A stretch of DNA of 32,000 nucleotides from an uncultured delta proteobacterium (GTDB taxonomy: Bacteria > Desulfobacterota > Binatia > UBA9968), in contig CAWDPO010000011.1 in assembly GCA_963804165.1 (NCBI GenBank), positions 51,759 to 83,758 of the forward strand, in the 5' to 3' direction. The notes beneath the pieces are model-generated. The model ran no database searches. It was given only the letters and a program-made list of their open reading frames with translations, and had not been told where the DNA came from. A program made the translations under genes and the position numbers. Below, piece after piece: positions 2-24,989 of this stretch (position 1 is its first letter; every line of letters starts with the position of its first letter).

Positions 2-769
2 GCCGGAGCCGAAAAAAGTGGCGCGGCGCCGGAGCGAAAAAAAGTTCACCTTGCTCAAGTTCAGAAGAAGCTCCCGAAGATTGTTCTTATATACCAGGTT
101 CAGAGCCAGATTCCTCTGGTTAGGACTTTTTACTACGGCGAAGAAATCTCGAAAACCCTTCCTTCATTCGTTCATCCGAATGAGTTCATCGATGGAGCGG
201 TGGTGAGCGGCACCTATAAAAGCGAGCGAAAAATTCCCACTTCGCTGCATTGTGCGAACCCTTTTATCGAGGAGATGCTCAAGCGGCACGGCGGCGAGTT
301 GGAGTTCCTCGGTGTGATTCTCTCGCGCGGATATAACGACAGCTTTGAGCAGAAAAAGAAAATGGGGCTGTGGAGCGCTCGCTTGGCCAGATGTTTGGGC
401 GCTGACGGCGCCGTGGCGATGATGGAGGGAACCGGCAATACGACCGTCGATTTTATGCAAACCGTCAAAGCTTGCGAAGCGGAAGGGATTAAGACCGTAG
501 CGGTTCTGCACGAGGATAACGGCGCCAAAGGCTATGAAAGGCCGCTGGTCGATCATCCGCGCGAAGCCGACGCGATGATCAGCCGTGGCAACCGCTCCGA
601 GAAATTGGTTCTTGCCCCACTCGACCAGGTCATCGGAGGAAAGGAGATCGACCTCCATCTTAAACTCAAACACGATCCGCATAAGCCACTGTTTTTCGAC
701 CCGACGATCTTTTTCGGTGCGCATTGTCAGATGGGAGCCAGCGGCTTTCGTGCTGCCTTTGAAAGCTGA
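2..769 (+). CDS. GrdE/PrdA-family protein (glycine/sarcosine/betaine reductase component B alpha/beta-like); 5' end lies outside the window
   Basis: Frame 2 is open from base 2; by hand translation there is no stop before the listed GTG at 200. The translation ...HPNEFIDGAVVSGTYKSERK...NPFIEEMLKRHG...LGADGAVAMMEGTGNTTVDFM...EGIKTVAVLHE carries motifs I recall from GrdE/PrdA proproteins. It ends 12 nt before the grdB-like gene. Confidence 0.6.
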   Translation, partial: AGAEKSGAAPERKKVHLAQVQKKLPKIVLIYQVQSQIPLVRTFYYGEEISKTLPSFVHPNEFIDGAVVSGTYKSERKIPTSLHCANPFIEEMLKRHGGELEFLGVILSRGYNDSFEQKKKMGLWSARLARCLGADGAVAMMEGTGNTTVDFMQTVKACEAEGIKTVAVLHEDNGAKGYERPLVDHPREADAMISRGNRSEKLVLAPLDQVIGGKEIDLHLKLKHDPHKPLFFDPTIFFGAHCQMGASGFRAAFES

Positions 770-781
770 GATGAAACCAAA

Positions 782-2086
782 ATGATCAAAGTTTTACACT
801 ATCTCAATCAATTTTTTGCCGGCATCGGCGGTGAGGAGAAAGCCGGACAGGAATTTTTCTTTCTGCCGAAGCCCGCCGGACCCGGTGTCCTGCTCCGCGA
901 CCTACTGAAGAACCAGGACATTGAGTATGCAACGGTGGTCTGCGGCGACAACTATTTTCATGAACATGAAGAAGCTGTTCTCGCTTCTTTGACGGAAGTG
1001 ATGGCGCAGTTTGCGCCGGACCTGTTTGTCGCCGGTCCGGCTTTTCATGCGGGGAGATACGGGCTTGCCTGCGCCAAAACCGCCAGCTTCGTGCGCGAGC
1101 GTTGGGGCGTGCCGGCGCTGACAGGGCTCTATGAAGAAAATCCGGGAACGAAGGAAGTCGGCCGGCATGTCTTGGTGATCCAGACGGGTTCGTCGGCTGC
1201 TTCGATGCAAACCGCCATTAAGCGGTTCGCCGATCTGGCGGTGCTTTTGCTCCACAAGAACGTTGAAAACCTCGAGGCCTTCAAAGAGGAATTTTGTCTA
1301 AAGATCCCGCGGCGATTTACCGTTCAAGCCGCTGCTCCCGACAGCGTACGAGCAGTGGAGATGCTGCTAGCTAAGCTGGGTGGCGCGGCTTTCGAGAGCG
1401 AGATCCCGCGAATCGAGGTGGCGCCCCATCCGGTTCCCGCCGCGATTCAAGATCTCTCTCAGGCAACTCTCGCCATGGTGACGGAAGGCGGTTTGGTGCC
1501 ATTAGGCAATCCCGACCGGCTGGAAAGCTCGCGCGGAACGAAGTACTTCAAGTACTCGATCAAAGAACGCGACGACTTGAAACCGGGCGAGTTCGAAGCC
1601 ATGCATACCGGTTACGACACCTCCACGGTCAACGCTGATCCCGACCGGCTTATTCCCGTAGACGCCATGCGGACATTGGAACGCGCCGGGAATTTCGGCA
1701 GACTTCACGATTACTATTATGTCACGACCGGAACCGGCGCCATGCCTGCCAAGATGCAGGAGCTCGGCGCAGGGATCGCCCAGGAGCTTTCGGCCTCGGG
1801 TGTAAACGGAGTCGTTCTCACTGCGACGTGAGGGACCGGCACGCGTAGCGGCGCTACGATCGCAAAAGAAATTGAGCGGAGAGGAATTCCGGTGGTGCTC
1901 ATCACCTGTCTCGCCAATGTGGCAACGCAAGTCGGGGCATACCGGATCATGAGCGGAAATAAATTTCACTACCCGGTGGGCAACCCGGATCTTCCGGCCG
2001 CCGAAGAAGCGAAGTGGCGCGCTGAGTTGCTGAGCGCGGCGCTGAAAATTTTACAAACCACAGTCGATGCCCCGACTGTCTTCTAA
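782..2086 (+). CDS. GrdB-family selenoprotein B-like reductase subunit, with selenocysteine encoded by the in-frame TGA at 1829-1831
   Basis: ORFs 782..1831 and 1892..2086 are in the same frame and are separated only by one TGA. The N-terminus (VLHYLNQFFAGIGGEEKA, GDNYF, AGPAFHAGRYG, TGLYEENPG) and the region after the TGA (GT.TR.GAT..KEIERRGIPVV ... LQTTVDAPTVF) match GrdB as I recall it. The TGA falls where GrdB has Sec (..LT.TU-GT..). Confidence 0.85.
1844..1858 (+). promoter_or_regulatory. Candidate bacterial SECIS hairpin for the UGA at 1829
   Basis: Perfect 6-bp stem cgtagc/gctacg around a G-rich loop (ggc, or cggcg if the top pair opens). It starts 13 nt after the UGA. Confidence 0.5.
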
Positions 2087-2246: not shown

Positions 2247-3373
2247 CCGGCATCGCACTGGCCACGCCACGTTTTCGCATCTCGTCTTCGTAGTGTTTGC
2301 GAATGTACGGGTCTTCATCGGCGTATTCGATCAAGGTGCCGCCTTCTTTCACGTCTATATAAACGCCGTCCTCACTCCGCTTGTCGGCAATCTTAAAGCC
2401 GATGGGGTGAATCCGGCTGCCATAGCGAAGCGCGAGATGTCGCGCCGGCTCGGGGCCGGTATTAAAATGTTGATGGAACCATCCCCCCGGCGGGCAATAG
2501 ACACTGCCGGCTTTCCATTTCACCTCGACGATTTCGTCCCCGCGGCCCGCTTCATAGGGCCCGAGGACCGAGTTCCTTCGACCATAACAAAACATAACCC
2601 GACGACTGCAAGCCCAACAGAATCGCGCCGGAACCGTGATAGTGCGCCTTGTGGTACCGAGCCGCCGGCCACTGTGCTAGATGGCCGATCAAACTATTGC
2701 CGGATAGCTCGAACTGAGTAATCCGCACCCCCGCTCCCTTGATCTCGCGTTGATCCAAATTCGCCGACTGAATGTCCATGATGAAATTGGTTTCCCAGAT
2801 ATGCTGCATTCCCGACTCGTAGCGCTTTTGTCCGACATGAAAAAAATCGTCTACCCCCGCGTAACGATCGGCAAAATTATAGGGGCAGTTAAAAATGAAC
2901 TCCTCATTATGCACGATGTCCATCACCAGCGGGGCGTTAGTGACCGCCAAAAATTTCACCGGCAGGCGCCCGCCGTTGATCAACCGATGCCAGGTGTTGA
3001 GCGGTGGCGCAAACAAGCTCCACGGCCCCCATTCGAACATCTGCTTGCGCCCACCCTCTTGCCATACTTCCGTGGCGCCTTGGCCGTCGAGTATGCAGAT
3101 CACTTCTTCGTAAAAATGCTTCTCGGCTAGAAGCGCGCCGCCGGCGGGAATCTCGCCGACATACATTCCGGTAACGCCTTCCATGCCGTATAGATTAATG
3201 AACGTCGCCTTGCCGCCGGTGCGTGTCCAGGGCGCCATGGCGACTTCCCGGACATCCTCGAGGCCGTAACCATCGATCACCGGAATCCCCTGGCAAGCCA
3301 TCCACTTGAAGTAAGTGGTTTTGTGAAACGCCGCCATCAAAGCTTTGATTCGTTCGTCCTGCGACATAATCAT
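2239..3373 (-). pseudogene. Bicupin (gentisate-dioxygenase-like, two cupin barrels) interrupted by one frameshift near 2556-2572
   Basis: ORF 2552..3466 carries cupin 1 and the start of cupin 2 (HKAHYHGSGAILLGLQSSGYVLLW). ORF 2239..2595 continues cupin 2 (EIVEVKWKAGSVYCPPGGWFHQHFNTG) in the next frame, overlapping at cctcgggccc. The likely start is the ATG at 3373 (or 3367), after AAGGAG. Confidence 0.75.
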
Positions 3374-3479
3374 CCGGCTCCTTCGCCGACGGAATTTTTT
3401 CTTAGTGAATGTTTCGATTGCAGATTGATTCGGCCATTGCATCGAAACGGAACGAAAACCTACCACAGTTCGATGAGAT

Positions 3480-5358: not shown

Positions 5359-5970
5359 ACTACACCTCCTAAAGCCGGTAAGATCCCGACCTGTGAAGGT
5401 GCGGGGAATCGTCTCGGGCAGTCTTTCAGTACTCAGTAGCGTCCCGCCAGCGCCTTTCAGGGTAGCGGGCTAATCGTCCATGTGCAGAGTGATTTAATTC
5501 TGGCGCGTCGCCGCACTGCAACGCAATCGCGATGCCAAGTACGGATCATCGAAAAAATTTGCTAACCGCATTTTCTGACTCTGAAACAATGAAACCATCG
5601 ACGGGACAAATGCATGATTTTTTGGAGGAACTGTCGCAAGAAAATTTTCGGTAACTGCGACTTCGCCAAAGCACTCCCGCTCTTTGTCGAGGAGCGATGT
5701 ATGAAAAAGAAGTCAAAATAGTGACAAAAGAGTGCAGGGAGGTTCGGACACTTTGGGCTCATTCAATTCAGATAACTTTAGTCTCTCCCGGTGATGCTCA
5801 TTCGGTAACGACGAGAGAGCATCGGTTCTGACGCGTCGATCTTGGTCGCCATTGTGATACTGTTGTTCGCTTGTCGAATTAGATATCCGTCTAGTTAGGC
5901 TGGCAGCTTATCATTAAGTTATGCTATCCATCGCTACAGTTTTATCATTTTGAGATCGAGGTAGGGCGTT

Positions 5971-7038
5971 ATGCAGATCGCGAAAATCGATACCAGGTTG
6001 CTCGAAATGCCCTATAACAAGCCGTTGGTTACGGCAACGAATAATTTCACCGTCGCGCGCGGATTGCTCGTGAAGGTCGCTACGGACGGTGGCATCGAAG
6101 GTTACGGCTATTCCGATCTCTTCCCGCGCACCGGCGAGACGCCCCAGACGGCGCAGCATGTCATCGAAACAGTTCTAAAAGGTAAGGTGGTCGGCAAGGA
6201 GATCGAGGATCTGCCGCGGATACGCGCCGACATCGATCATACTTTGACCGGAAACCCGCGGGCCAAGGCGGCTTTGGAAACCGCGATGTACGACGCGCTG
6301 GCGCGGGGCTATCACATGCCGCTATCCGTCATGCTCGGCGGGAAATATCGAAGCGAGATTAGAGTCATCAAGATGGTGAGCGTCGGCGATCCCGATGCGA
6401 TGGCCGAAGAAGCGAAACAGCTTGTGCGTAGCGGACTGGCGCTGAAGCTCAAAGTCGGCGGGAAGATTGAGCAGGATTTGCCCCGGGTTGCGGCCGTACG
6501 CAAGGCGGTCGGCGCCGACGTCTTCATCAAAGTCGACGCCAATGAATCGTACGATGCAAAAACCGCCATTCGCTTGGCCAAAGGGCTGGCCGATCACGGG
6601 GTGGAAGTCTTCGAACAGCCGGTGCCGCGCGATCAACTCGACGCCTTGTGGGAAGTGAAAAAGCATTCGCCGATCAAGATCGAAGCGGACCAGTCGGCAC
6701 GATCCTTCGCCGACGTACAGATGATGATTAAAAATCGCATGGTCGATTCGATCAACACGGGTATCGCTAAAGTCGGTAGCATTGGAGAGGTGCGCAAAAT
6801 CGCTGATCTTTGTGAGCTGAACGGTATCCGCTGCGCCCTCTCGAACACGGCGGGCAGTATGGTTGGCGACGCTGCCGCGGTGCATCTCGCGGCGAGCACG
6901 CCCGGTATCTCACCGTTGTGCGAGCTGGGCGAGTTTGAAGTGATCACCGGCGATCCATTTTTCGGCCTGACGGTCGAGAAGGGCATGATCAGCGTGCCGG
7001 AGGGCGAGGGATTGGGGGTGAGTCTCAGGGGATTCTAG
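5971..7038 (+). CDS. Mandelate racemase/muconate lactonizing enzyme family protein (enolase superfamily, dipeptide-epimerase-like)
   Basis: 355-aa ORF with the characteristic KVDANESYD, FEQPVPRD and IKIEADQS metal-ligand regions. Confidence 0.9.
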   Translation: MQIAKIDTRLLEMPYNKPLVTATNNFTVARGLLVKVATDGGIEGYGYSDLFPRTGETPQTAQHVIETVLKGKVVGKEIEDLPRIRADIDHTLTGNPRAKAALETAMYDALARGYHMPLSVMLGGKYRSEIRVIKMVSVGDPDAMAEEAKQLVRSGLALKLKVGGKIEQDLPRVAAVRKAVGADVFIKVDANESYDAKTAIRLAKGLADHGVEVFEQPVPRDQLDALWEVKKHSPIKIEADQSARSFADVQMMIKNRMVDSINTGIAKVGSIGEVRKIADLCELNGIRCALSNTAGSMVGDAAAVHLAASTPGISPLCELGEFEVITGDPFFGLTVEKGMISVPEGEGLGVSLRGF

Positions 7039-7054
7039 GAAGAGTGGAAGCAAT

Positions 7055-7171
7055 CGTTGCAGACGTTCCAATCGTTCAAGTCGTTTCGAACGGACTCCGG
7101 ACTCGATCCCGGCGATTGAACGTTTTGAACGGAGCGTAGCGGTTGAACGGTTTGAACCATTTGAACTCTTA
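7055..7171. repeat. 13 consecutive 9-bp phased units: four CGTTnnAnn units followed by five TTGAAC-containing units in opposite orientation
   Basis: CGTT starts at 7055, 7064, 7073 and 7082. TTGAAC sits at 7116, 7125, 7143, 7152 and 7161, all at 9-bp multiples; the 7134 slot is degenerate. CGTTCAA is the reverse complement of TTGAACG. The array fills the MR/MLE-UbiD intergenic region. Confidence 0.8.
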
Positions 7172-7190
7172 ATCTTGAGGAAAGATACCT

Positions 7191-8624
7191 ATGCCGGATT
7201 TACGCACATGGCTTAACGATGTCGACAAGCTCGGTCAGCTGATGACCGTGGAAAACGTTCACTGGGATCTCGAGCTTTCGACCTTGACGGAAATTATCAA
7301 CGAGCGCTCGAAGACGCGACCGGCGATCATTTTCGATCGCATCAAAGACTACCCGCAAGGTTATCGCGTTGCCGCCAATCTGGTGTCATCTGTCGGTCGC
7401 TTGGCTCTCACGCTCGGCATGAAGGCCGACATGAGCGATATGGATTTCGTCCAAGCTTGGCGCCAGCAGGTTAAGAAGATCACACCGCTGCCGACAGAGA
7501 CAGTTGCGACGGGACGGCTGTTTGAAAACGTCAAGAAAGGTAAAGACATTAACGTACTGCAATTTCCCGTGCCACGCTGGCACGAGCTGGATGGCGGGCG
7601 CTACATCGGCACCGACGATCTCGTGATCACGCGCGATCCGGAGGAGGACTGGGTCAACGTCGGCACCTACCGAGTCATGGTTCACGGCCCCGATCGCCTG
7701 GGGTTACACATGTCGCCCGGTAAACATGGCCGCGTGCACAGGGACAAATATCACGCGTGGGGAAAACCGTTGCCGATCGCGGTTTCTTTCGGTCATCATC
7801 CGATCAACTTCGTCGTGGCGTCCACCGACGTACCGAATCGCGTCAACGAGTACGAGTACACCGGCGGCATTCTCGGCAAACCGCTGCAGGTCGTTAAAGG
7901 ACCGCTGACGGGTTTGCCGATCCCCGCCGACGCGGAGATCGCCATCGAAGGCGAAGTGGCGGTTGACGATGTCATGCCCGAAGGTCCGTTCGGAGAATGG
8001 ACCGGCTACTACGCAAGCAATCAGCCGGCGGTACCCGTGATTCAAATCAAAGCGCTCTACTTCCGCAACGATCCGATCCTCTGCGGCTTTCCACTGCTCA
8101 AACCCTCCGCAGGCGACAATATTCATTTCTCGCTGATGCGCTCGTCCTTGGTCTGGAACGCCCTGGATGAAGCCGGCGTGCCCGATGTCAGAGGCGTGTG
8201 GTGTCATCCCTCGGCGGGCCGCTTCCTTACCGTGGTTTCGATCAAGCAGCGCTACCCCGGTCATGCGCGCCAAGCCGGCATGATCGCTAGCCAATGCCGA
8301 TCCGGCGCTTATCTTGGCCGTTACGTCGTCGTGGTCGATGACGACGTCGACATAACCGATTCCGAAGAATTTCTCTGGGTGCTGAGCAGCCGTTCTGATC
8401 CGGCTGAGTCGATCGAGATTCTCCGGCGCGCCTGGAGCGGCCCGCTCGATCCGCGCATCGCGCGCGACCAGGTGGGTCACAGCTCGCGCGCGGTGATCGA
8501 TGCGACGCGGCCGTACGAATGGCGCGAGAAGTTTCCCAAAGTCAGCGGCGCGAGCCGAGAATTAAAAGACAAAGTCGCGGGCGATTGGCGTGAGTTTCTC
8601 GATCAGAAGGTCGCCGGAAAATAG
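7191..8624 (+). CDS. UbiD-family (prenyl-FMN dependent) decarboxylase
   Basis: 477-aa ORF after GAGGAAAG. The N-terminal DLRTWLNDVDKLGQL...IINE and the overall length are typical of the UbiD family. Confidence 0.9.
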   Translation: MPDLRTWLNDVDKLGQLMTVENVHWDLELSTLTEIINERSKTRPAIIFDRIKDYPQGYRVAANLVSSVGRLALTLGMKADMSDMDFVQAWRQQVKKITPLPTETVATGRLFENVKKGKDINVLQFPVPRWHELDGGRYIGTDDLVITRDPEEDWVNVGTYRVMVHGPDRLGLHMSPGKHGRVHRDKYHAWGKPLPIAVSFGHHPINFVVASTDVPNRVNEYEYTGGILGKPLQVVKGPLTGLPIPADAEIAIEGEVAVDDVMPEGPFGEWTGYYASNQPAVPVIQIKALYFRNDPILCGFPLLKPSAGDNIHFSLMRSSLVWNALDEAGVPDVRGVWCHPSAGRFLTVVSIKQRYPGHARQAGMIASQCRSGAYLGRYVVVVDDDVDITDSEEFLWVLSSRSDPAESIEILRRAWSGPLDPRIARDQVGHSSRAVIDATRPYEWREKFPKVSGASRELKDKVAGDWREFLDQKVAGK

Positions 8625-14626: not shown

Positions 14627-16891
14627 TTAGGCGCTCTGGCGCCGGGGGAAATAGGCGACGATATCGGTCAATGGATCGGTGATCAGCTTGATGAACCAAA
14701 TCATCGAAATGCGAAAGTCGTGCTTCCACACCAGATAAACCACGCGCCCGAGGACCACCGCCAGGGTCCACAGAAACCAATTCAGCGCCACTGCGGCGAT
14801 CGTCGAGGTGAAGCCGTCCACCGTCCAATCGCCGGCTTGCGCCACATGGAACACTGGAATCAACAGATAGCCGAGGACGATCAGCGTCTTGTTGCGCGTG
14901 TTGTATCCTAAGAGTAATTTTTCCTTGTCATGACACGCGGGCTCCAAGATCGCATGACCGAACTGCCGCACAAAAAGGGCCGCCAACCCCAAACACATCG
15001 CGATGGTGAGATCGGAAAACGCCAGAACATAGCAGTAGATGAAGACACTCGAGCTCAACAGATGGAAGAATTGGTTTACGCCGTTGCTATGGGACGCGTG
15101 ATGATCATCATGTTTTCGTTGCATCACTTCGGCATAAAACGTCCGTAGGGGTTCTGGAGTTCGTACCAGACTGCCTAACATTTCTCGCATAAGACGAGCG
15201 CGCATAATTTTCTCCCTTCCCGGATATTGATCCGCGGTCAACCACCACGCGTCGATCTTCATCGAGTGCGCGGCGTTGAGCAGCTTTGCCTGCAAGTCAT
15301 TGTAGTCTGCCACAGTAAAATCCATGCTGCTTAAGCATCGGCCGGTGCCCACCCAACTAAGCGTCACGCCTTCGGCGCGGAGATAATACTGCAGCAGCCA
15401 GTTATAGCGACTCGGTTCCTTGAAGAGCACGGTCCATACCGTCGCGAGATTCACGACGCGCAAGGGTAACGCCGCGTCGGCGAGTTTCTGATTGGTCGAG
15501 TGCACCCATTCCGCGCAACGCTGATTGGACTCGTCATACAGTTTCACCGTGGCAGGCTCTACCACCCAGCGCAAAAATTCGTTCATCGCTCCCATCACCG
15601 CCGGATGCCCGGAAAACGTGCCGACAACGTAAGCGATGCGCATGGGATGCGCGGGATCGAAACGGCGCATGAGAGTTTTATTGCCGCACACCACGCCGAT
15701 GGGCAGGCCGCCGGCCACCGTTTTGCCGTACACGACCATATCCGCGCGCACGCCGAAGTATTCCTGTGCGCCACCCGGTGAGAGGCGAAAGCCGGTATAA
15801 ACTTCGTCGAAGATCAGTGGAATATCGCAGGCGCTGCACACCTCGCGTAGTTGGCGCAGCCACTGAGCGTAGCGCTCGGTGGAATCCTGGGTTTTACGCA
15901 CGTCGCTGGTGAGTAACACCGCATCATTGGGCGGTGGGGAATTAGGATGGAACGACTGCACCGGGTTGACCAGCACCCCGGCGATTTCTTTTGCCCGCCG
16001 GCGAATGACGGCGAGCGAGGCCGGATTGACGTCCTTGAGCGTGAGGCAATCATCGAGGGGGCGTTCACTCCCCAGTCCTGGCTGCACGCCGTCCCACCAG
16101 CCATGATAAGCCCCGGAAAAACAGACGACCAGTTTTCTCCGCGTATTGAACCGCGCCATGCGCACCGCGGCCATTACGGCTTCAGTGCCGCTCATATGAA
16201 ACGACACTTCGTCCAGGTGCGAAACATTCTTGAGCATAGCGATGTTGTCGGCGACGACCGGATGCACCGGGCCCAGGACCGGACCGAGATCTTTCACGCG
16301 TTCCCAGCCCTTCTGTATCCATTCTTTATAGCGGTCGAACCCGGCCACGTTGACGCCATAGGAGCCACTGACATCGATGGTCCAATGGCCATCGAGAGTT
16401 TGCAGGCGCGGGCCTTTTGAAGCCGTCACCACCGAGCAAAGATTGAATTTTTCCCGCATGACGCGCACAAACGGGAACGGTACGCGATTGGCGTCGGTGA
16501 AGCGCAGATCCGAGAAGCTCTCGCGGACCGCATTCGCCCAGGCGATGGACTGGTGATGCTGCGTTTGCAGAAACGTCGCCAGGCGATCAAGAGCTTTCTT
16601 GCGACGGTCAACCCAACTGTCTCCCGCTCCGTCAGCGCGCAAGAATTCTTCCTCCGTGTAATCGCGCGATTTCACCCAGTGCGACAGTTGCCGCGAAAGC
16701 GCCGGCATCCATGCCAGCGCCGGCAAAGTCATGAGAAATCGAATCAGCCTTTGCCCGGCGTAAGTTAGGAAAAACAGACAAAGAATAATTCCGAAGAAAA
16801 GCCAGCCGTCGAACAAAGCGAGCCGGCACGCCGCTGTCGAGCTCGCGTCAAGGCACACCGTCCATCTTTGCAAAGCTTCGTCGAAAATCAT
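14627..16891 (-). CDS. Tri-domain membrane protein: N-terminal TM segment, class-III (GSA-aminomutase-like) PLP aminotransferase, and C-terminal DUF962/Mpo1-like His-rich membrane domain
   Basis: ATG after GGGAGGAA. Residues 1-75 are hydrophobic helices. Residues ~150-540 (16444..15272) carry SGTEAVMAAVRMAR, FDEVYTGFR and the PLP-lysine context YGKTVAGGLPIG. Residues ~575-754 (15169..14630) carry HDDHHASH...FGHAILEP plus four hydrophobic helices, as in Mpo1/YGL010w-like proteins. Confidence 0.85.
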   Translation of the reverse strand: MIFDEALQRWTVCLDASSTAACRLALFDGWLFFGIILCLFFLTYAGQRLIRFLMTLPALAWMPALSRQLSHWVKSRDYTEEEFLRADGAGDSWVDRRKKALDRLATFLQTQHHQSIAWANAVRESFSDLRFTDANRVPFPFVRVMREKFNLCSVVTASKGPRLQTLDGHWTIDVSGSYGVNVAGFDRYKEWIQKGWERVKDLGPVLGPVHPVVADNIAMLKNVSHLDEVSFHMSGTEAVMAAVRMARFNTRRKLVVCFSGAYHGWWDGVQPGLGSERPLDDCLTLKDVNPASLAVIRRRAKEIAGVLVNPVQSFHPNSPPPNDAVLLTSDVRKTQDSTERYAQWLRQLREVCSACDIPLIFDEVYTGFRLSPGGAQEYFGVRADMVVYGKTVAGGLPIGVVCGNKTLMRRFDPAHPMRIAYVVGTFSGHPAVMGAMNEFLRWVVEPATVKLYDESNQRCAEWVHSTNQKLADAALPLRVVNLATVWTVLFKEPSRYNWLLQYYLRAEGVTLSWVGTGRCLSSMDFTVADYNDLQAKLLNAAHSMKIDAWWLTADQYPGREKIMRARLMREMLGSLVRTPEPLRTFYAEVMQRKHDDHHASHSNGVNQFFHLLSSSVFIYCYVLAFSDLTIAMCLGLAALFVRQFGHAILEPACHDKEKLLLGYNTRNKTLIVLGYLLIPVFHVAQAGDWTVDGFTSTIAAVALNWFLWTLAVVLGRVVYLVWKHDFRISMIWFIKLITDPLTDIVAYFPRRQSA

Positions 16892-21062: not shown

Positions 21063-22568
21063 ATGCTTGATTCTCTGGCCAGCCTGGCCTTCGGTTTTTC
21101 GGTTGCCCTACAAGCGCAAAATCTTTTTTATTGCTTCATCGGGGTAACAATGGGGACCCTGGTTGGGGTTCTCCCCGGACTGGGTCCGACGGTGACGATT
21201 GCGTTGCTCCTGCCGGCCACCTTCCAACTCAATCCTGTTTCTGCCATTATCATGCTCTCGGGCATCTGTTATGGCGCCATGTACGGCGGCTCGACGACTT
21301 CGATCTTACTCAACATCCCCGGCGAAGCAGCTTCAGTGGTGACCTGCCTTGATGGCTATCAAATGGCCCGTCAAGGCCGCGGCGGTCCGGCTCTTGGAAT
21401 CTCGGCCTTCGGCTCCTTTATCGCGGGGACCATCAGCATCTTCGGCCTAGTCTTTCTCGCGCCGACCTTGGCCGAGCTTGGCCTCAAGTTCGGCCCGCCG
21501 GAGTACTTTGCCCTCATGGTCATGGGATTGACGGTCGTTGCGTACCTCGCGCGTAGGTCCATGGCTAAAGCTCTCGTGATGACTGTGTTCGGCATTGTTC
21601 TCGGATGCATCGGTTTAGATCCGGTGACTGCGACGCCGCGTTTTACTTTCGGCATGCTCGGGCTCGCCGACGGGATCAGTTTGCCGGCGATGGTCATGGG
21701 ACTGTTCGGCATCGCCGAAGTTTTAGAGAATCTCGGCGTGCGCGCCAAGGCAGAAGTTTATTCCGGGAAGATTCAAGGACTCTTTCCCGACCGGGAAGAC
21801 TGGCGGCGATCCGCGGGACCGATAGCGCGGGGCTCTCTTTTGGGATTCTTTCTCGGCCTGGTGCCCGGCGTCGGCGCGATCGTGCCGCAGTTTTTGAGCT
21901 ACGCGTTGGAAAAAAAGCTCTCGGCCCATCCAGAGCGTTTCGGCAGCGGGGAAATCGAGGGTGTCGCGGCACCCGAAGCGTGCAATAACGCCGCCATGGG
22001 CGGAACTTTCATTCCGCTCTTGAGTCTGGGTATTCCTTCGAGCGCCACCACCGCCGTGCTGCTCGGCGCTTTGATGATCTACGGCCTGACCCCCGGACCT
22101 TTGCTGATCAAAAACTCGCCGGATCTTTTCTGGGGTGTCATTGCGAGCATGTATATCGGTAATGCGCTGCTGTTGGTTCTTAACCTGCCGCTTATTCCTC
22201 TGTGGGTGAAAATTTTGCAGATCCCCTATGCTTACCTCGCGTCTTTTATTATTTTGTTCTGCTTGATCGGCGCCTATAGTCTCAACAACAGCACCGCGGA
22301 TATTTTTGTTGCCGTCCTGTTCAGTTTGATCGGGCTATTGTTAAAAAAATTTGATTTCGAGCCGGCGCCTTTGGTGCTGGCTTTTGTTTTGGGTCCCATG
22401 CTCGAGACCGCTCTAAGGCGCTCCCTGATATTATCGGACGGCAGCTTTGAGATCTTTCTCACGCGACCGATATCGGCCGCTTTTATACTGTTGGCTCTGG
22501 TTGCATTGACGGCGCCGCTGCTTGGCAAGAAGGTGAGGGTGGGACGTGGACTCAGTGAAGAAGATTAA
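21063..22568 (+). CDS. tctA: Tripartite tricarboxylate transporter, large permease TctA
   Basis: 501-aa polytopic protein with the N-terminal GVLPGLGP and IPGE motifs typical of TctA. Confidence 0.9.
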   Translation: MLDSLASLAFGFSVALQAQNLFYCFIGVTMGTLVGVLPGLGPTVTIALLLPATFQLNPVSAIIMLSGICYGAMYGGSTTSILLNIPGEAASVVTCLDGYQMARQGRGGPALGISAFGSFIAGTISIFGLVFLAPTLAELGLKFGPPEYFALMVMGLTVVAYLARRSMAKALVMTVFGIVLGCIGLDPVTATPRFTFGMLGLADGISLPAMVMGLFGIAEVLENLGVRAKAEVYSGKIQGLFPDREDWRRSAGPIARGSLLGFFLGLVPGVGAIVPQFLSYALEKKLSAHPERFGSGEIEGVAAPEACNNAAMGGTFIPLLSLGIPSSATTAVLLGALMIYGLTPGPLLIKNSPDLFWGVIASMYIGNALLLVLNLPLIPLWVKILQIPYAYLASFIILFCLIGAYSLNNSTADIFVAVLFSLIGLLLKKFDFEPAPLVLAFVLGPMLETALRRSLILSDGSFEIFLTRPISAAFILLALVALTAPLLGKKVRVGRGLSEED

Positions 22569-23016
22569 AAGAACGCTCGACACGGTCGGCGCGCTTTTCT
22601 GGTTTGTCTTGGCACTGGCAATATGTTACCGAGCCAGCTTACTCGGCATCGGCAGCGCCAGCGAGCCGGGCTCCGGGTTTATCTTTTTTTGGTCCGGAGT
22701 GATCATGGCATTTCTCGCGCTGCTGATTTTTGCCGATTCTCTGCGGGTAGGCGGCGAAGATGGCGCGAAGTTTATTGGAATAAATTGGCCGAAAGTGTTG
22801 CTCGTTCTGGGGGCTATCCTCCTATATGGACTTTTACTGGAAAAGGTCGGCTTCGTCTTGACAACCTTTGCGCTGATGAGCTTTCTACTTTGGATCAGCG
22901 ACGATACGAAGTGGCCGATTGCCCTCGCTGTTGCAGGTGCCGCCGCGTTGGGCAGTTTCGCGCTATTCGACCTTTGGTTACAGATCAGGCTTCCCAAAGG
23001 GATCTTCGGCATTTGA
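22546..23016 (+). CDS. tctB: Tripartite tricarboxylate transporter, small permease TctB
   Basis: 156-aa protein with four transmembrane helices, overlapping the tctA end by 23 nt and followed by tctC. Confidence 0.75.
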   Translation: MDSVKKIKRTLDTVGALFWFVLALAICYRASLLGIGSASEPGSGFIFFWSGVIMAFLALLIFADSLRVGGEDGAKFIGINWPKVLLVLGAILLYGLLLEKVGFVLTTFALMSFLLWISDDTKWPIALAVAGAAALGSFALFDLWLQIRLPKGIFGI

Positions 23017-23034
23017 CTCGAAACGGAGGAAACC

Positions 23035-24021
23035 ATGCGGTCGTCAGACAAAAGAATTTTGCTCATCTTAACTCTGGTTCTGGGTATTTCTTTGTTGCCG
23101 GCGATGGCTCGGGCGCAGGACAAATATCCCTCCCGGCCGATCGAAATGGTCGTCGCCTTTCCGGCGGGCGGCTTCGCCGATCTGACGGGAAGGATCTTCG
23201 CCGACGAAATGTCGAAGCTGCTCAACGTTACTTTTGCTCCCGTGAACAAAGGCGGAGCCACCGGCAGTCTCGCCGCCAGTGGTGTCCTGCGCGCGCCCAA
23301 GGACGGCTACAATCTGCTCGTCAATACCCTGGGGGGCATGGTGCTGGCGCCGATCGTCCTGAAAGATGTCGCCTACGATGCCCAGAAGGATTTTTATCCG
23401 GTTGCGTATATTACTTCCGCGCCGGACGGGCTTACGGTGCGCGCCGACTCTCCGTTCAAATCTATTCATGATTTGATCGACGCGGCCAAAAAGAACCCGG
23501 CAAAATTATCCTACGGCACGGCGGGGACCGGAGTCGGGGGTCACTTCAACGCGGCGATCTTTGCGCACAGCGCCGCTATCAAAATTAAACACGTGCCGTT
23601 CAAAGGCGGCGGCGAGTATGTTCCATCGCTCTTGGGAGGACACATCGATTTCGTCGTCGGCACCGCGATCGCTACGCTGCCCCAAGAGCAGGCGGGCAAA
23701 CTGAGAACTTTGGCGTTTCTTAGCGACAATAAAATGCCCGCTCTACCCGGCGTCTCGACGGCTTCTCAACTCGGTATCAAGGGAGATTTTCTCGATAGCT
23801 GGGCGGGTTGTTTCGTCGCGACGGGGACACCGAAGGCCGCGATCGACGCGCTCGTGACCGCCGCCGATAAAGTGCTCAAGTCCAAACCGTTCGCCGAACG
23901 GATCGAAAAGACCGGCGGCATCGTGCAGTACCTTTCGCCGTCTCAGTTTCAGTCGATGATCGAGAAAAACAAAAACAGCGCCATGGAAACAGCCAAGAGG
24001 GAGGGGCTGCTACCGCAGTAA
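23035..24021 (+). CDS. tctC: Tripartite tricarboxylate transporter substrate-binding protein (Bug/TctC family)
   Basis: ATG after GGAGG, followed by a signal peptide. YPSRPIEMVVAFPAGG..D...R and the ~325-aa length are typical of the Bug family. Confidence 0.9.
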   Translation: MRSSDKRILLILTLVLGISLLPAMARAQDKYPSRPIEMVVAFPAGGFADLTGRIFADEMSKLLNVTFAPVNKGGATGSLAASGVLRAPKDGYNLLVNTLGGMVLAPIVLKDVAYDAQKDFYPVAYITSAPDGLTVRADSPFKSIHDLIDAAKKNPAKLSYGTAGTGVGGHFNAAIFAHSAAIKIKHVPFKGGGEYVPSLLGGHIDFVVGTAIATLPQEQAGKLRTLAFLSDNKMPALPGVSTASQLGIKGDFLDSWAGCFVATGTPKAAIDALVTAADKVLKSKPFAERIEKTGGIVQYLSPSQFQSMIEKNKNSAMETAKREGLLPQ

Positions 24022-24263: not shown

Positions 24264-24989
24264 ATGGTTCCAAAGAAAATTTTTTACACCAAAGGAGTCG
24301 GGGTTCATAAGGAAAAGCTGGCTTCTTTTGAAATGGCGCTGAGGGTTGCCGGCCTGGCCCACTGTAATTTGGTCCTGGTTTCGAGCATCTTTCCGCCAGA
24401 CTGCAAGATTGTTCCCAAGGAGGAAGGCTTAAAGCTGTTACGACCCGGCGAGATCGTATTTGCCGTTTATGATCGAGAAAGTAACAACGAGCCGAATCGC
24501 CTCATTGCAGCTTCGGTCGGCGTGGCGATCCCCGCAGATTCGTCCGTGCATGGGTATCTTTCCGAGCATCATTCGTTTGGTGAAACGGACGAAAAAGCCG
24601 GCGAATATGCCGAAGACCTTGCCGCTAGCATGTTGGCGACCACCTTGGGGATCGAATTTGATCCTGAATTGGATTGGGACGAGCGAGAGCAGATTTTTAA
24701 GATGTCGGGAAAGATCGTCCGTACCACCAATATCACTCAGTCTGCGGTTGGCAATAAGGATGGTCTCTGGACCACGGTGTTTGCAGCTGCGGTTTTTATC
24801 AATGACGAAAGCCTATCTTTTGACATCGGAAAGTCCGTCACTGTTAGCAATAAGGCTCCGCTTCAGGAAGAAGTCTTGAGGCAAACGTTACAGAGCCAGT
24901 CTAAAACGATCCAAGCCAACGACAAACTAGCGCAGCGTAACATAGAGCAGCCTAGACTCGCTCCGGCGACAAAAAAGAGCCTTTCGTAA
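24264..24989 (+). CDS. pdaD: Pyruvoyl-dependent arginine decarboxylase with a ~60-aa C-terminal extension
   Basis: [45 protein letters not shown] contains the family's self-cleavage Ser-Ser site. ATG after GAGGAG. The Q/S/K-rich tail beyond ~aa 180 is not part of the family as I recall it. Confidence 0.85.

Follow-up and report, generated by a model that had tools for sequence, protein, structure and literature searches.

Positions 782 to 2,086 (forward strand) of a 32,000-nucleotide stretch of DNA from an uncultured delta proteobacterium of the Binatia (contig CAWDPO010000011.1; hereafter, the window, meaning the whole stretch analysed) carry, as we hold with good confidence, a single selenocysteine (Sec)-containing gene of the selenoprotein B family, in which an in-frame UGA is decoded under the direction of a SECIS (selenocysteine insertion sequence) element and whose product would have a protein B-type function. 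Automatic gene calling divides this segment into two open reading frames (ORFs), 782..1831 (forward strand; 349 amino acids (aa), ATG start, ending at the TGA at 1829-1831) and 1892..2086 (forward strand; 64 aa, GTG start), in an identical frame. When 782-2086 is translated throughout, its 435 codons contain one internal stop, the TGA at residue 350, and the terminal TAA at 2084-2086, in agreement with a sequence-only reading of this DNA that had described two ORFs in one frame with a single TGA between them. We take the complete gene to be 434 codons plus the TAA, and 1892..2086, which is matched by 64-66-aa database fragments, to be a product of mechanical calling and not a separate gene. 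That 782-2086 is one gene whose UGA is read through and translated is, in our view, almost certain.

The 434-aa product, with a placeholder at residue 350, matches Pfam GRDB (PF07355; 9e-115, 384 bits, cut-off 22) and TIGR01918, the NCBIfam model of the glycine/betaine/sarcosine/D-proline family reductase selenoprotein B (402.9 bits, cut-off 65.45). The latter match covers residues 3-434 (positions 1-430 of the 431 of the profile) and therefore spans the TGA; the earlier proposal that the residues on both sides of the TGA fit selenoprotein B of glycine-type reductases is thus borne out.

The UGA codon and its possible readings

The conservation of the UGA was assessed in 87 aligned sequences, that is, the window, six genome loci, 79 metagenome loci and grdF of the experimentally studied grdG-grdF pair of Peptoclostridium acidaminophilum. 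The six genome loci come from species-representative genomes (metagenome-assembled genomes (MAGs) labelled Candidatus Binatia, Chloroflexota and 'delta proteobacterium'), and the metagenome loci from a scan in which 577 relatives were confirmed and the 80 best retained. Within this set, the clade of the window comprises 30 unique sequences at 57-93% protein identity. The codon at the Sec site is TGA in 87/87 sequences, with not a single TAA, TAG or sense codon, across an aligned set that spans 40-93% identity; the Thr codon directly before it is found as ACG, ACT, ACA and ACC in the clade while the TGA is invariant. The codon, which we read as the Sec codon (1829..1831, forward strand, residue 350), aligns with the Sec codon of GrdF (VILTST-U-GTCTRCGATMVKEIERAGIPVV in GrdF vs. 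VVLTAT-U-GTGTRSGATIAKEIERRGIPVV in the window) and with that of a canonical GrdB, inside a T-U-G-T-x-T-R-x-G-A block whose columns are invariant in a 21-sequence alignment (A3). The TGA thus stands where the sequence-only reading had placed it, at the Sec position.

Downstream of the TGA, about 84 codons form an open frame with protein-level conservation and synonymous-site variation. The 20 codons from the TGA to the GTG of the second ORF (GTGTRSGATIAKEIERRGIP) contain no in-frame ATG, GTG or TTG start; no residue among the first ten differs between clade loci, and the remainder is almost as uniform. Being start-less and conserved at the protein level, these codons must therefore be translated. 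Alternatively, the TGA might be a genuine stop, in a pseudogene or in a split gene that yields a 349-aa protein and a C-terminal peptide with its own start. Exactly those two products are indeed what gene callers report and what public databases list, and no Sec machinery is visible in the window (no tRNA gene in the 32 kb, and no SelA, SelB or SelD among the ORFs longer than 300 aa), a finding that also counts against our own reading. Such a stop, however, would have to be kept as TGA over the whole identity range of the 87 sequences, be followed by conserved codons ahead of the first possible in-frame start and by a structured, covarying element at the expected place of a SECIS (below), and occur in the same arrangement as in selenoproteins known from biochemical work, P. 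acidaminophilum GrdF among them. We consider a genuine stop extremely improbable.

The database record is consistent with one gene as well. Nearly all of the top 120 database matches are 348-349 aa long, and the C-terminal piece is on record as separate ORFs of 55-69 aa, with both pieces adjoining on one 301-kb contig. Decoding of the UGA as Sec therefore has the effect that gene callers truncate the protein at 349 aa, as had been anticipated from the window itself. Homologs that terminate at this position, which the earlier reading had named as potentially refuting, do exist; judged from the conserved coding sequence that follows the TGA in them, they are gene-caller truncations, and no clade homolog with a sense codon at the site was found. 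A search with the C-terminal 84 aa for close homologs containing Cys returned separately called fragments only.

A UGA read as a standard amino acid, through an alternative code (TGA as Trp or Gly) or near-cognate suppression, would account for the database homologs with Trp at the site (P0047, P0276 and P0290) and for one with Arg (P0064). Against this, TGA ends 8 of the 19 other confidently identified genes of the window, including the gene immediately upstream, and none of the 19 has an internal TGA; that is, TGA acts as a normal stop in the other genes of the window and there is no reassigned code. The window has 52-60% G+C, unlike the TGA-reassigned lineages known so far, and a conserved SECIS would be needless for plain read-through. 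The three Trp-bearing entries derive from short metagenome contigs (1.0-1.6 kb) of the JGI (Joint Genome Institute) and, because all 87 aligned loci have TGA at this position, we read their Trp as the outcome of a wrong translation table, probably from an incorrectly assigned genetic code. Decoding as a standard amino acid is thus very improbable, if marginally less so than a genuine stop.

A few database sequences differ at the site in other ways. The Arg-bearing P0064 breaks off 12 residues later. Two PrdB-length homologs, P0200 and P0215, have an active-site column that is neither Cys nor Sec (Thr in 'TATTGTGTRSGA' and Asp in 'TCGDGTATRAGA', respectively), and are possibly non-catalytic or differently catalytic relatives.

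The SECIS-like hairpin

Twelve nucleotides (nt) after the TGA, positions 1844..1858 (forward strand) form a perfect 6-base-pair (bp) stem closed by a 3-nt GGC loop (CGUAGC-GGC-GCUACG), which we take to be the upper stem-loop of a grdB-type SECIS element at 1832..1869 (forward strand). The folding energy is -6.0 kcal/mol for the hairpin alone and -9.6 kcal/mol in its 42-nt context (1829-1870). The bare hairpin has a z-score of -2.1; for stretches of 42-60 nt, the comparison with shuffled sequences gave z-scores of +0.56 to +0.65, which are not significant. Given this lack of significance in a G+C-rich context, the case for the hairpin rests on the comparative evidence.

Pairing was tested on an ungapped alignment of 85 sequences reaching from the TGA to +45, with the 3' arm slid by 1-3 columns as the control. 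Of all cells, 97.4% are compatible with the six proposed pairs vs. 10-64% in the slid controls, and RNAalifold predicted the same stem independently; a conserved structure is thus present at 1840-1870 in the orthologous loci. Compensatory changes are seen at two of the pairs, 19:27 (U-A in 47 distinct sequences, A-U in 29) and 18:28 (U-A, C-G or A-U). The silent third base of the Ala codon changes from GCA to GCU where the second motif Cys (UGC) becomes Ser (AGC), and that of the Arg codon (CGU/CGC/CGA) changes in step with the base that opens codon +9 (ACG/GUG or GCG/UCG). On the aligned sequences, silent sites that track their pairing partners in this way are hard to explain except by selection on RNA pairing. 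Within the clade, codons +5 to +9 (CGT, AGC, GGC, GCT and ACG) are found in 30, 30, 29, 30 and 30 of the 30 unique sequences, that is, with a codon entropy of 0-0.2 bit vs. 1-2.2 bits where Arg, Ala, Thr and Gly are encoded at other places of the alignment.

The model of Zhang and Gladyshev for bacterial SECIS (bSECIS) elements calls for a loop of 3-9 nt that has G in its first two positions, a stem of 4-16 bp, a UGA-to-loop distance of 16-37 nt, and a minimum free energy of -7.5 kcal/mol or lower (summarised in PMC13188914). The window element agrees with this model, as it has a GGC loop with G at loop positions 1 and 2, a 6-bp stem, a spacing of 18 nt and -9.6 kcal/mol. In a permissive local scan of 101 nt with the Rfam family RF01990 (SECIS_4), positions 1832-1869 aligned to the full model (1-38/38) at 32.1 bits (E = 3.5e-6). 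Canonical grdB/grdF loci score 46-65 bits with SECIS_4, directly after the TGA and at the same offset as in the window; SECIS_4 therefore represents the grdB-type SECIS, and the window has a diverged copy of it. This copy shares with RF01990 the 6-bp stem, the GGN triloop and the UGA offset, and differs from it where the coding differs (UGU to GGC; UUGC/GCAA to UAGC/GCUA), with one lower-stem pair non-canonical. We do not claim a lower stem extending the hairpin, as the flanking positions vary without consistent pairing.

Apart from the missing machinery genes and the non-significant folding energies mentioned above, two further points speak against the element as we interpret it. Much of the A-U count reflects one change inherited clade-wide, leaving about four independent compensatory events, as estimated from the motif groups of the loci. 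Further, the SECIS_4 score of 32.1 is below the Rfam gathering score of 38, and because of this a whole-window Rfam scan at gathering thresholds returned no match. Nevertheless, it is very likely that the inserted residue is Sec and that its insertion is directed by the element at 1832-1869. The hairpin that the sequence-only reading had picked out as fitting a bacterial SECIS has gained considerably from the covariation, the frozen codons, the bSECIS features and the SECIS_4 alignment. Under our interpretation, the mRNA at 1832-1869 folds into a grdB-type SECIS (6-bp stem, GGN loop 18 nt past the UGA), and the UGA at 1829-1831 is for this reason decoded as Sec. Such elements recruit, in known systems, SelB with Sec-tRNA(Sec) to the ribosome. 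The capacity of the organism for Sec decoding is, in turn, inferred from the conserved UGA together with the SECIS; a literature search for Binatia and selenocysteine found no papers.

A divergent clade, its partner gene and its neighbours

While family membership and the Sec column stood up in the comparison with GrdB, GrdF, GrdH and PrdB that the earlier reading had called for, orthology to any of the four did not. The window protein scored 376.1 bits with the GrdB equivalog TIGR01917 (cut-off 602.2), 403 bits with the GrdF model NF040794 (cut-off 800), 389.2 bits with the GrdH model NF040795 (cut-off 775) and 88.4 bits with the PrdB model TIGR04483 (cut-off 300). These scores all fall short of the curated cut-offs, and the protein is therefore no orthologue of any of the four. 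Its identity to the canonical proteins is 41-44%; an exact-sequence look-up found no record of it, and a sequence search of the PDB with both subunits found no solved relative. An AlphaFold model of P0047, a homolog whose Sec site is occupied by Trp, has a pLDDT (predicted local distance difference test) of 94, and its Foldseek matches in the PDB are weak (periplasmic-binding-protein-like folds, template modeling (TM) scores of 0.17-0.28) and carry no mechanistic information. The likeness to GrdB, GrdF and GrdH extends to length, two-domain architecture, Sec column, SECIS offset and the place directly 3' of a GrdE-type gene, whereas the bit scores (376-403 against cut-offs of 602-800), the sequence motifs and the organisms differ: the three known proteins come from Clostridia-type fermenters, and the clade from soil-type MAGs labelled Binatia, Chloroflexota, and delta- or alphaproteobacteria.

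The GrdE-type gene is found at 2..769 (forward strand), with its 5' end cut by the window edge and its TGA stop (767-769) 12 nt 5' of the ATG of the GrdB-like gene. It encodes a GrdE/GrdG-like partner (protein B alpha/beta-type subunit) that matches PF09338 (Gly_reductase; 4.5e-38) and scores 125.6 bits, far below the cut-off, with the NCBIfam GrdG model. Full-length orthologues of about 428-430 aa exist as a single ORF in L001-L004. In two other loci (L005:8682-9985 and L088:8665-9988) the GrdE-like gene is frameshifted into two ORFs, most likely an assembly error rather than biology. Natural GrdE-GrdB fusions were also encountered (P0135, P0161, P0180, P0199 and P0242; called at 697-798 aa and mostly terminating at the Sec site), in which the GrdE-like half is likewise devoid of the pyruvoyl-forming Cys (SGDS, SGNF, SGQY, SASF).

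Both subunits of the clade have lost residues of the canonical systems. In place of the canonical U-x-x-C-x-x-C (U-G-T-C-T-R-C), the window and all 32 clade sequences have U-G-T-G-T-R-S, so both cysteines of the motif are lost in the clade. The partner has a Tyr codon (TAT, 215..217, forward strand) where canonical GrdE/GrdG have the pyruvoyl-forming Cys (residue 242 in Clostridioides difficile GrdE; PMC9908766), according to an alignment with GrdG and the partners from more than 40 loci; the corresponding site reads SGTY-KSERK in the window and SG[T/N][Y/F]-KSERK in the clade vs. canonical SGN|C-V-x-x-C, the second Cys being gone as well. Across loci, Gly at U+3 of the selenoprotein coincides with the loss of the pyruvoyl Cys in the partner. 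Three other cysteines, on the other hand, set the clade apart from the canonical proteins. The partner has a clade-specific Cys (251..253, forward strand) in 'TSLHC[A/D/N]NP' vs. canonical 'YHHLNNP', as found by partner alignment; this 'LHC' Cys is shared by every clade partner and by that of L042, the one further lineage whose selenoprotein carries Ser at U+6, was seen in no others, and is no more than a candidate for a relocated thiol. In the selenoprotein, Cys172 (1295..1297, forward strand; 'E-x-x-C-L-x-I-P-R-R-F') is present without exception in alignment A1 but not in canonical GrdF/GrdB, and Cys376 (1907..1909, forward strand; '[IV]-T-C-L'), 26 residues after Sec, is clade-specific and invariant. 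Separately, the L-T-A-T-U motif (window 1826-1828, and clade loci) has Ala in place of the Ser of canonical 'S-T-U-G', a Ser that has been proposed as a possible formylglycine/carbonyl site in GrdB in the fluoroacetate reductase paper (PMC10838667). This change is not strictly tied to the other losses, L087 having TAT-U with CxxC intact.

The surroundings of the pair differ from those of canonical loci too. By tblastn (E<=1e-5), none of GrdA, GrdC, GrdD, TrxA and TrxB was found in the 32 clade loci, with flanks of as much as 10 kb, or in the 30 kb of the window downstream, while grdA lies beside grdB in 38 of the 54 non-clade loci and the reference locus L052 has the order trxB-trxA-grdE-grdA-grdB-grdC-grdD. 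GrdB itself is a classical bacterial selenoprotein with few or no Cys homologs that usually co-occurs with GrdA (PMC1794560, PMC13188914). Glycine riboswitch aptamers were observed upstream of canonical operons of the L052 type (L039:2321-2422, L052:2364-2465 and L048:1865-2038), and none in the window or any clade locus scanned.

What does accompany the clade is, in the closest relatives (L001, L003, L005, L008, L009 and L088; 83-87% identity), a divergently oriented gene for a B12-binding radical S-adenosylmethionine (SAM) enzyme (PF02310 + PF04055). This gene is seen in all close orthologous loci with enough flank, for example in L001 at 5713-7392 (reverse strand; 559 aa, about 70 nt upstream of the GrdE-like gene), L005:6834-7943 and L088:7044-8603 (both divergent to the pair); its place in the window would be beyond the left edge. 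The protein reached no NCBIfam equivalog, and a subgroup at 60-64% identity showed no radical SAM gene within the flanks at hand. Convergent with the pair, a cupin-like gene lies at 2552..3466 (reverse strand; weak Cupin_2 match, synteny in seven loci), whose orthologue L001:10183-11334 matches Cupin_2 at 5e-7. The closest orthologous loci retain this gene next to the pair, any functional link being conjectural.

In two members of the 60-64% subgroup, a fluoride riboswitch (RF01734; L029:2423-2492 and L026:2438-2505, both reverse strand; 40.7 and 42.3 bits, respectively) precedes crcB-DUF190; some 2.2 kb, occupied by PPK2 and an unannotated ORF, separate it from the GrdE-like gene, upstream of which it lies. 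Neither the window nor any of the remaining clade loci scanned had such a riboswitch. In view of the FarEB precedent (below) the arrangement is a lead, but we rejected it as evidence of defluorination beyond that, given that it is confined to one lineage and that other genes intervene.

Farther along the window there are a 754-aa ORF at 14627-16891 (reverse strand), of which residues ~342-516 alone match a class-III aminotransferase domain; TctA and TctC tripartite tricarboxylate transporter genes at 21063-24021 (forward strand); and, after these, a gene for a pyruvoyl-dependent arginine decarboxylase (24264-24989, forward strand), with no evident link to the GrdB-like pair.

Possible reaction cycle and broader meaning

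The GrdB-like product would associate with its co-transcribed GrdE-like partner (2-769) in a 'protein B'-type, substrate-specific reductase in which Sec350 would attack the alpha-carbon of the bound substrate. The substrate would probably not be activated via a Schiff base and would have an intrinsically good leaving group instead, by analogy with betaine reductase GrdH/GrdI and fluoroacetate reductase FarB/FarE. The resulting selenoether could then go to a GrdA whose gene lies elsewhere, a route proposed for FarEB, or be resolved by a thiol within the complex, as in D-proline reductase, the candidates being the partner 'LHC' Cys, Cys376 and Cys172. Chemistry independent of a Schiff base could as readily apply as not, and independence from GrdA and GrdCD appears unlikely. 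Weighing on the functional side of our proposal is that function is deduced from missing residues and missing neighbours; that grdA and grdCD could sit elsewhere in the genome, neighbourhoods alone having been tested; and that the conserved neighbours in 33 loci (solute-binding proteins (SBP_bac, NMT1), cupin and radical SAM) include none that names a substrate.

The closest characterised parallel is the fluoroacetate reductase of Cloacibacillus porcorum, in which FarB lacks the CxxC and FarE, like GrdI, lacks the self-processing (pyruvoyl) cysteines, and whose operon includes the radical SAM gene farC (PMC10838667). The clade has the same CxxC and processing-Cys losses and, in the close orthologues of the window, an adjacent radical SAM gene. 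Yet the partner is not FarE, because the full-length orthologue reached 110.6 bits (and the window fragment 49.8 bits) against a cut-off of 675 for NF053623. Further, the clade lacks the major facilitator superfamily (MFS) antiporter, its radical SAM gene is of the B12-binding class and divergent, and the organisms are unrelated; the evidence for fluoroacetate use by the clade amounts to the riboswitch/crcB 2.2 kb away in one lineage. D-proline reductase is a second parallel, with a Sec-containing GrdB-homologous and a GrdE-homologous subunit working without GrdA or GrdCD, and thus a possible two-subunit model. PrdB, however, corresponds to the C-terminal half only (~240 aa; TIGR04483, 88 bits vs. 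300), and PrdA is a pyruvoyl proprotein (TIGR04480, 24 bits vs. 700).

It is possible, if on the improbable side, that the pair is an ordinary substrate-specific protein B (for glycine, sarcosine or betaine) that hands its carboxymethyl-selenoether to GrdA and GrdCD encoded elsewhere, with energy kept as acetyl-phosphate. GrdF, GrdH and GrdB are indeed the best curated models (403, 389 and 376 bits), FarEB is reported to work with a GrdA and protein C encoded elsewhere in spite of the same motif losses (PMC10838667), and two non-canonical loci with U-G-T-G-T-R-C (L058 and L080) are still near grdA and grdC. All these scores, however, are about half of the curated cut-offs; the genes for GrdA, GrdC, GrdD and thioredoxin, which most canonical loci have, are missing from the clade neighbourhoods searched; and the UxxCxxC, thought to be the interaction motif of GrdA (PMC13188914), is absent here. 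At the other extreme, we rate as quite unlikely, and somewhat more so than an ordinary protein B, a self-contained two-subunit Sec reductase (GrdE-like plus GrdB-like) of soil bacteria such as the Binatia that would operate without pyruvoyl, GrdA or GrdCD. Here, Sec350 would displace a good leaving group, for instance a quaternary ammonium or a halide (as in fluoroacetate), from an alpha-substituted acid, and resolution of the selenoether would fall to a thiol that had moved from the lost UxxCxxC to the partner Cys (251-253), Cys376 or Cys172; the divergent B12-binding radical SAM enzyme of the subgroup of the window might mature or repair the complex.

The recoding itself is known biology: NCBI names Binatia homologs 'family reductase selenoprotein B', and Rfam models this type of SECIS. 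The new part is modest: a widespread, uncharacterised clade that seems to form a two-gene unit in the neighbourhoods examined and that fails the defining features of GrdB/F/H and PrdB. On the alignments available, the clade shares its losses with FarB/FarE without being their orthologue.

In conclusion, the gene at 782-2086 points to a systematic mis-calling of this clade, since public databases hold hundreds of 349-aa truncations, orphan ORFs of ~64 aa and some translations with Trp, and Rfam SECIS_4 at its threshold misses the clade element. The clade is widespread, with 577 metagenomic relatives confirmed in one scan, and the recoding would imply that soil lineages (MAGs labelled Binatia and others) maintain selenocysteine machinery. 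All the residues to which Schiff-base activation and Sec protection are ascribed in glycine reductase are missing from the clade, and so are, nearby, the A and C components; this makes it a tractable candidate for a novel substrate specificity or a simplified reaction cycle among the Stickland-type selenoenzymes, the one characterised analogue to share the losses being an enzyme that cleaves a C-F bond.

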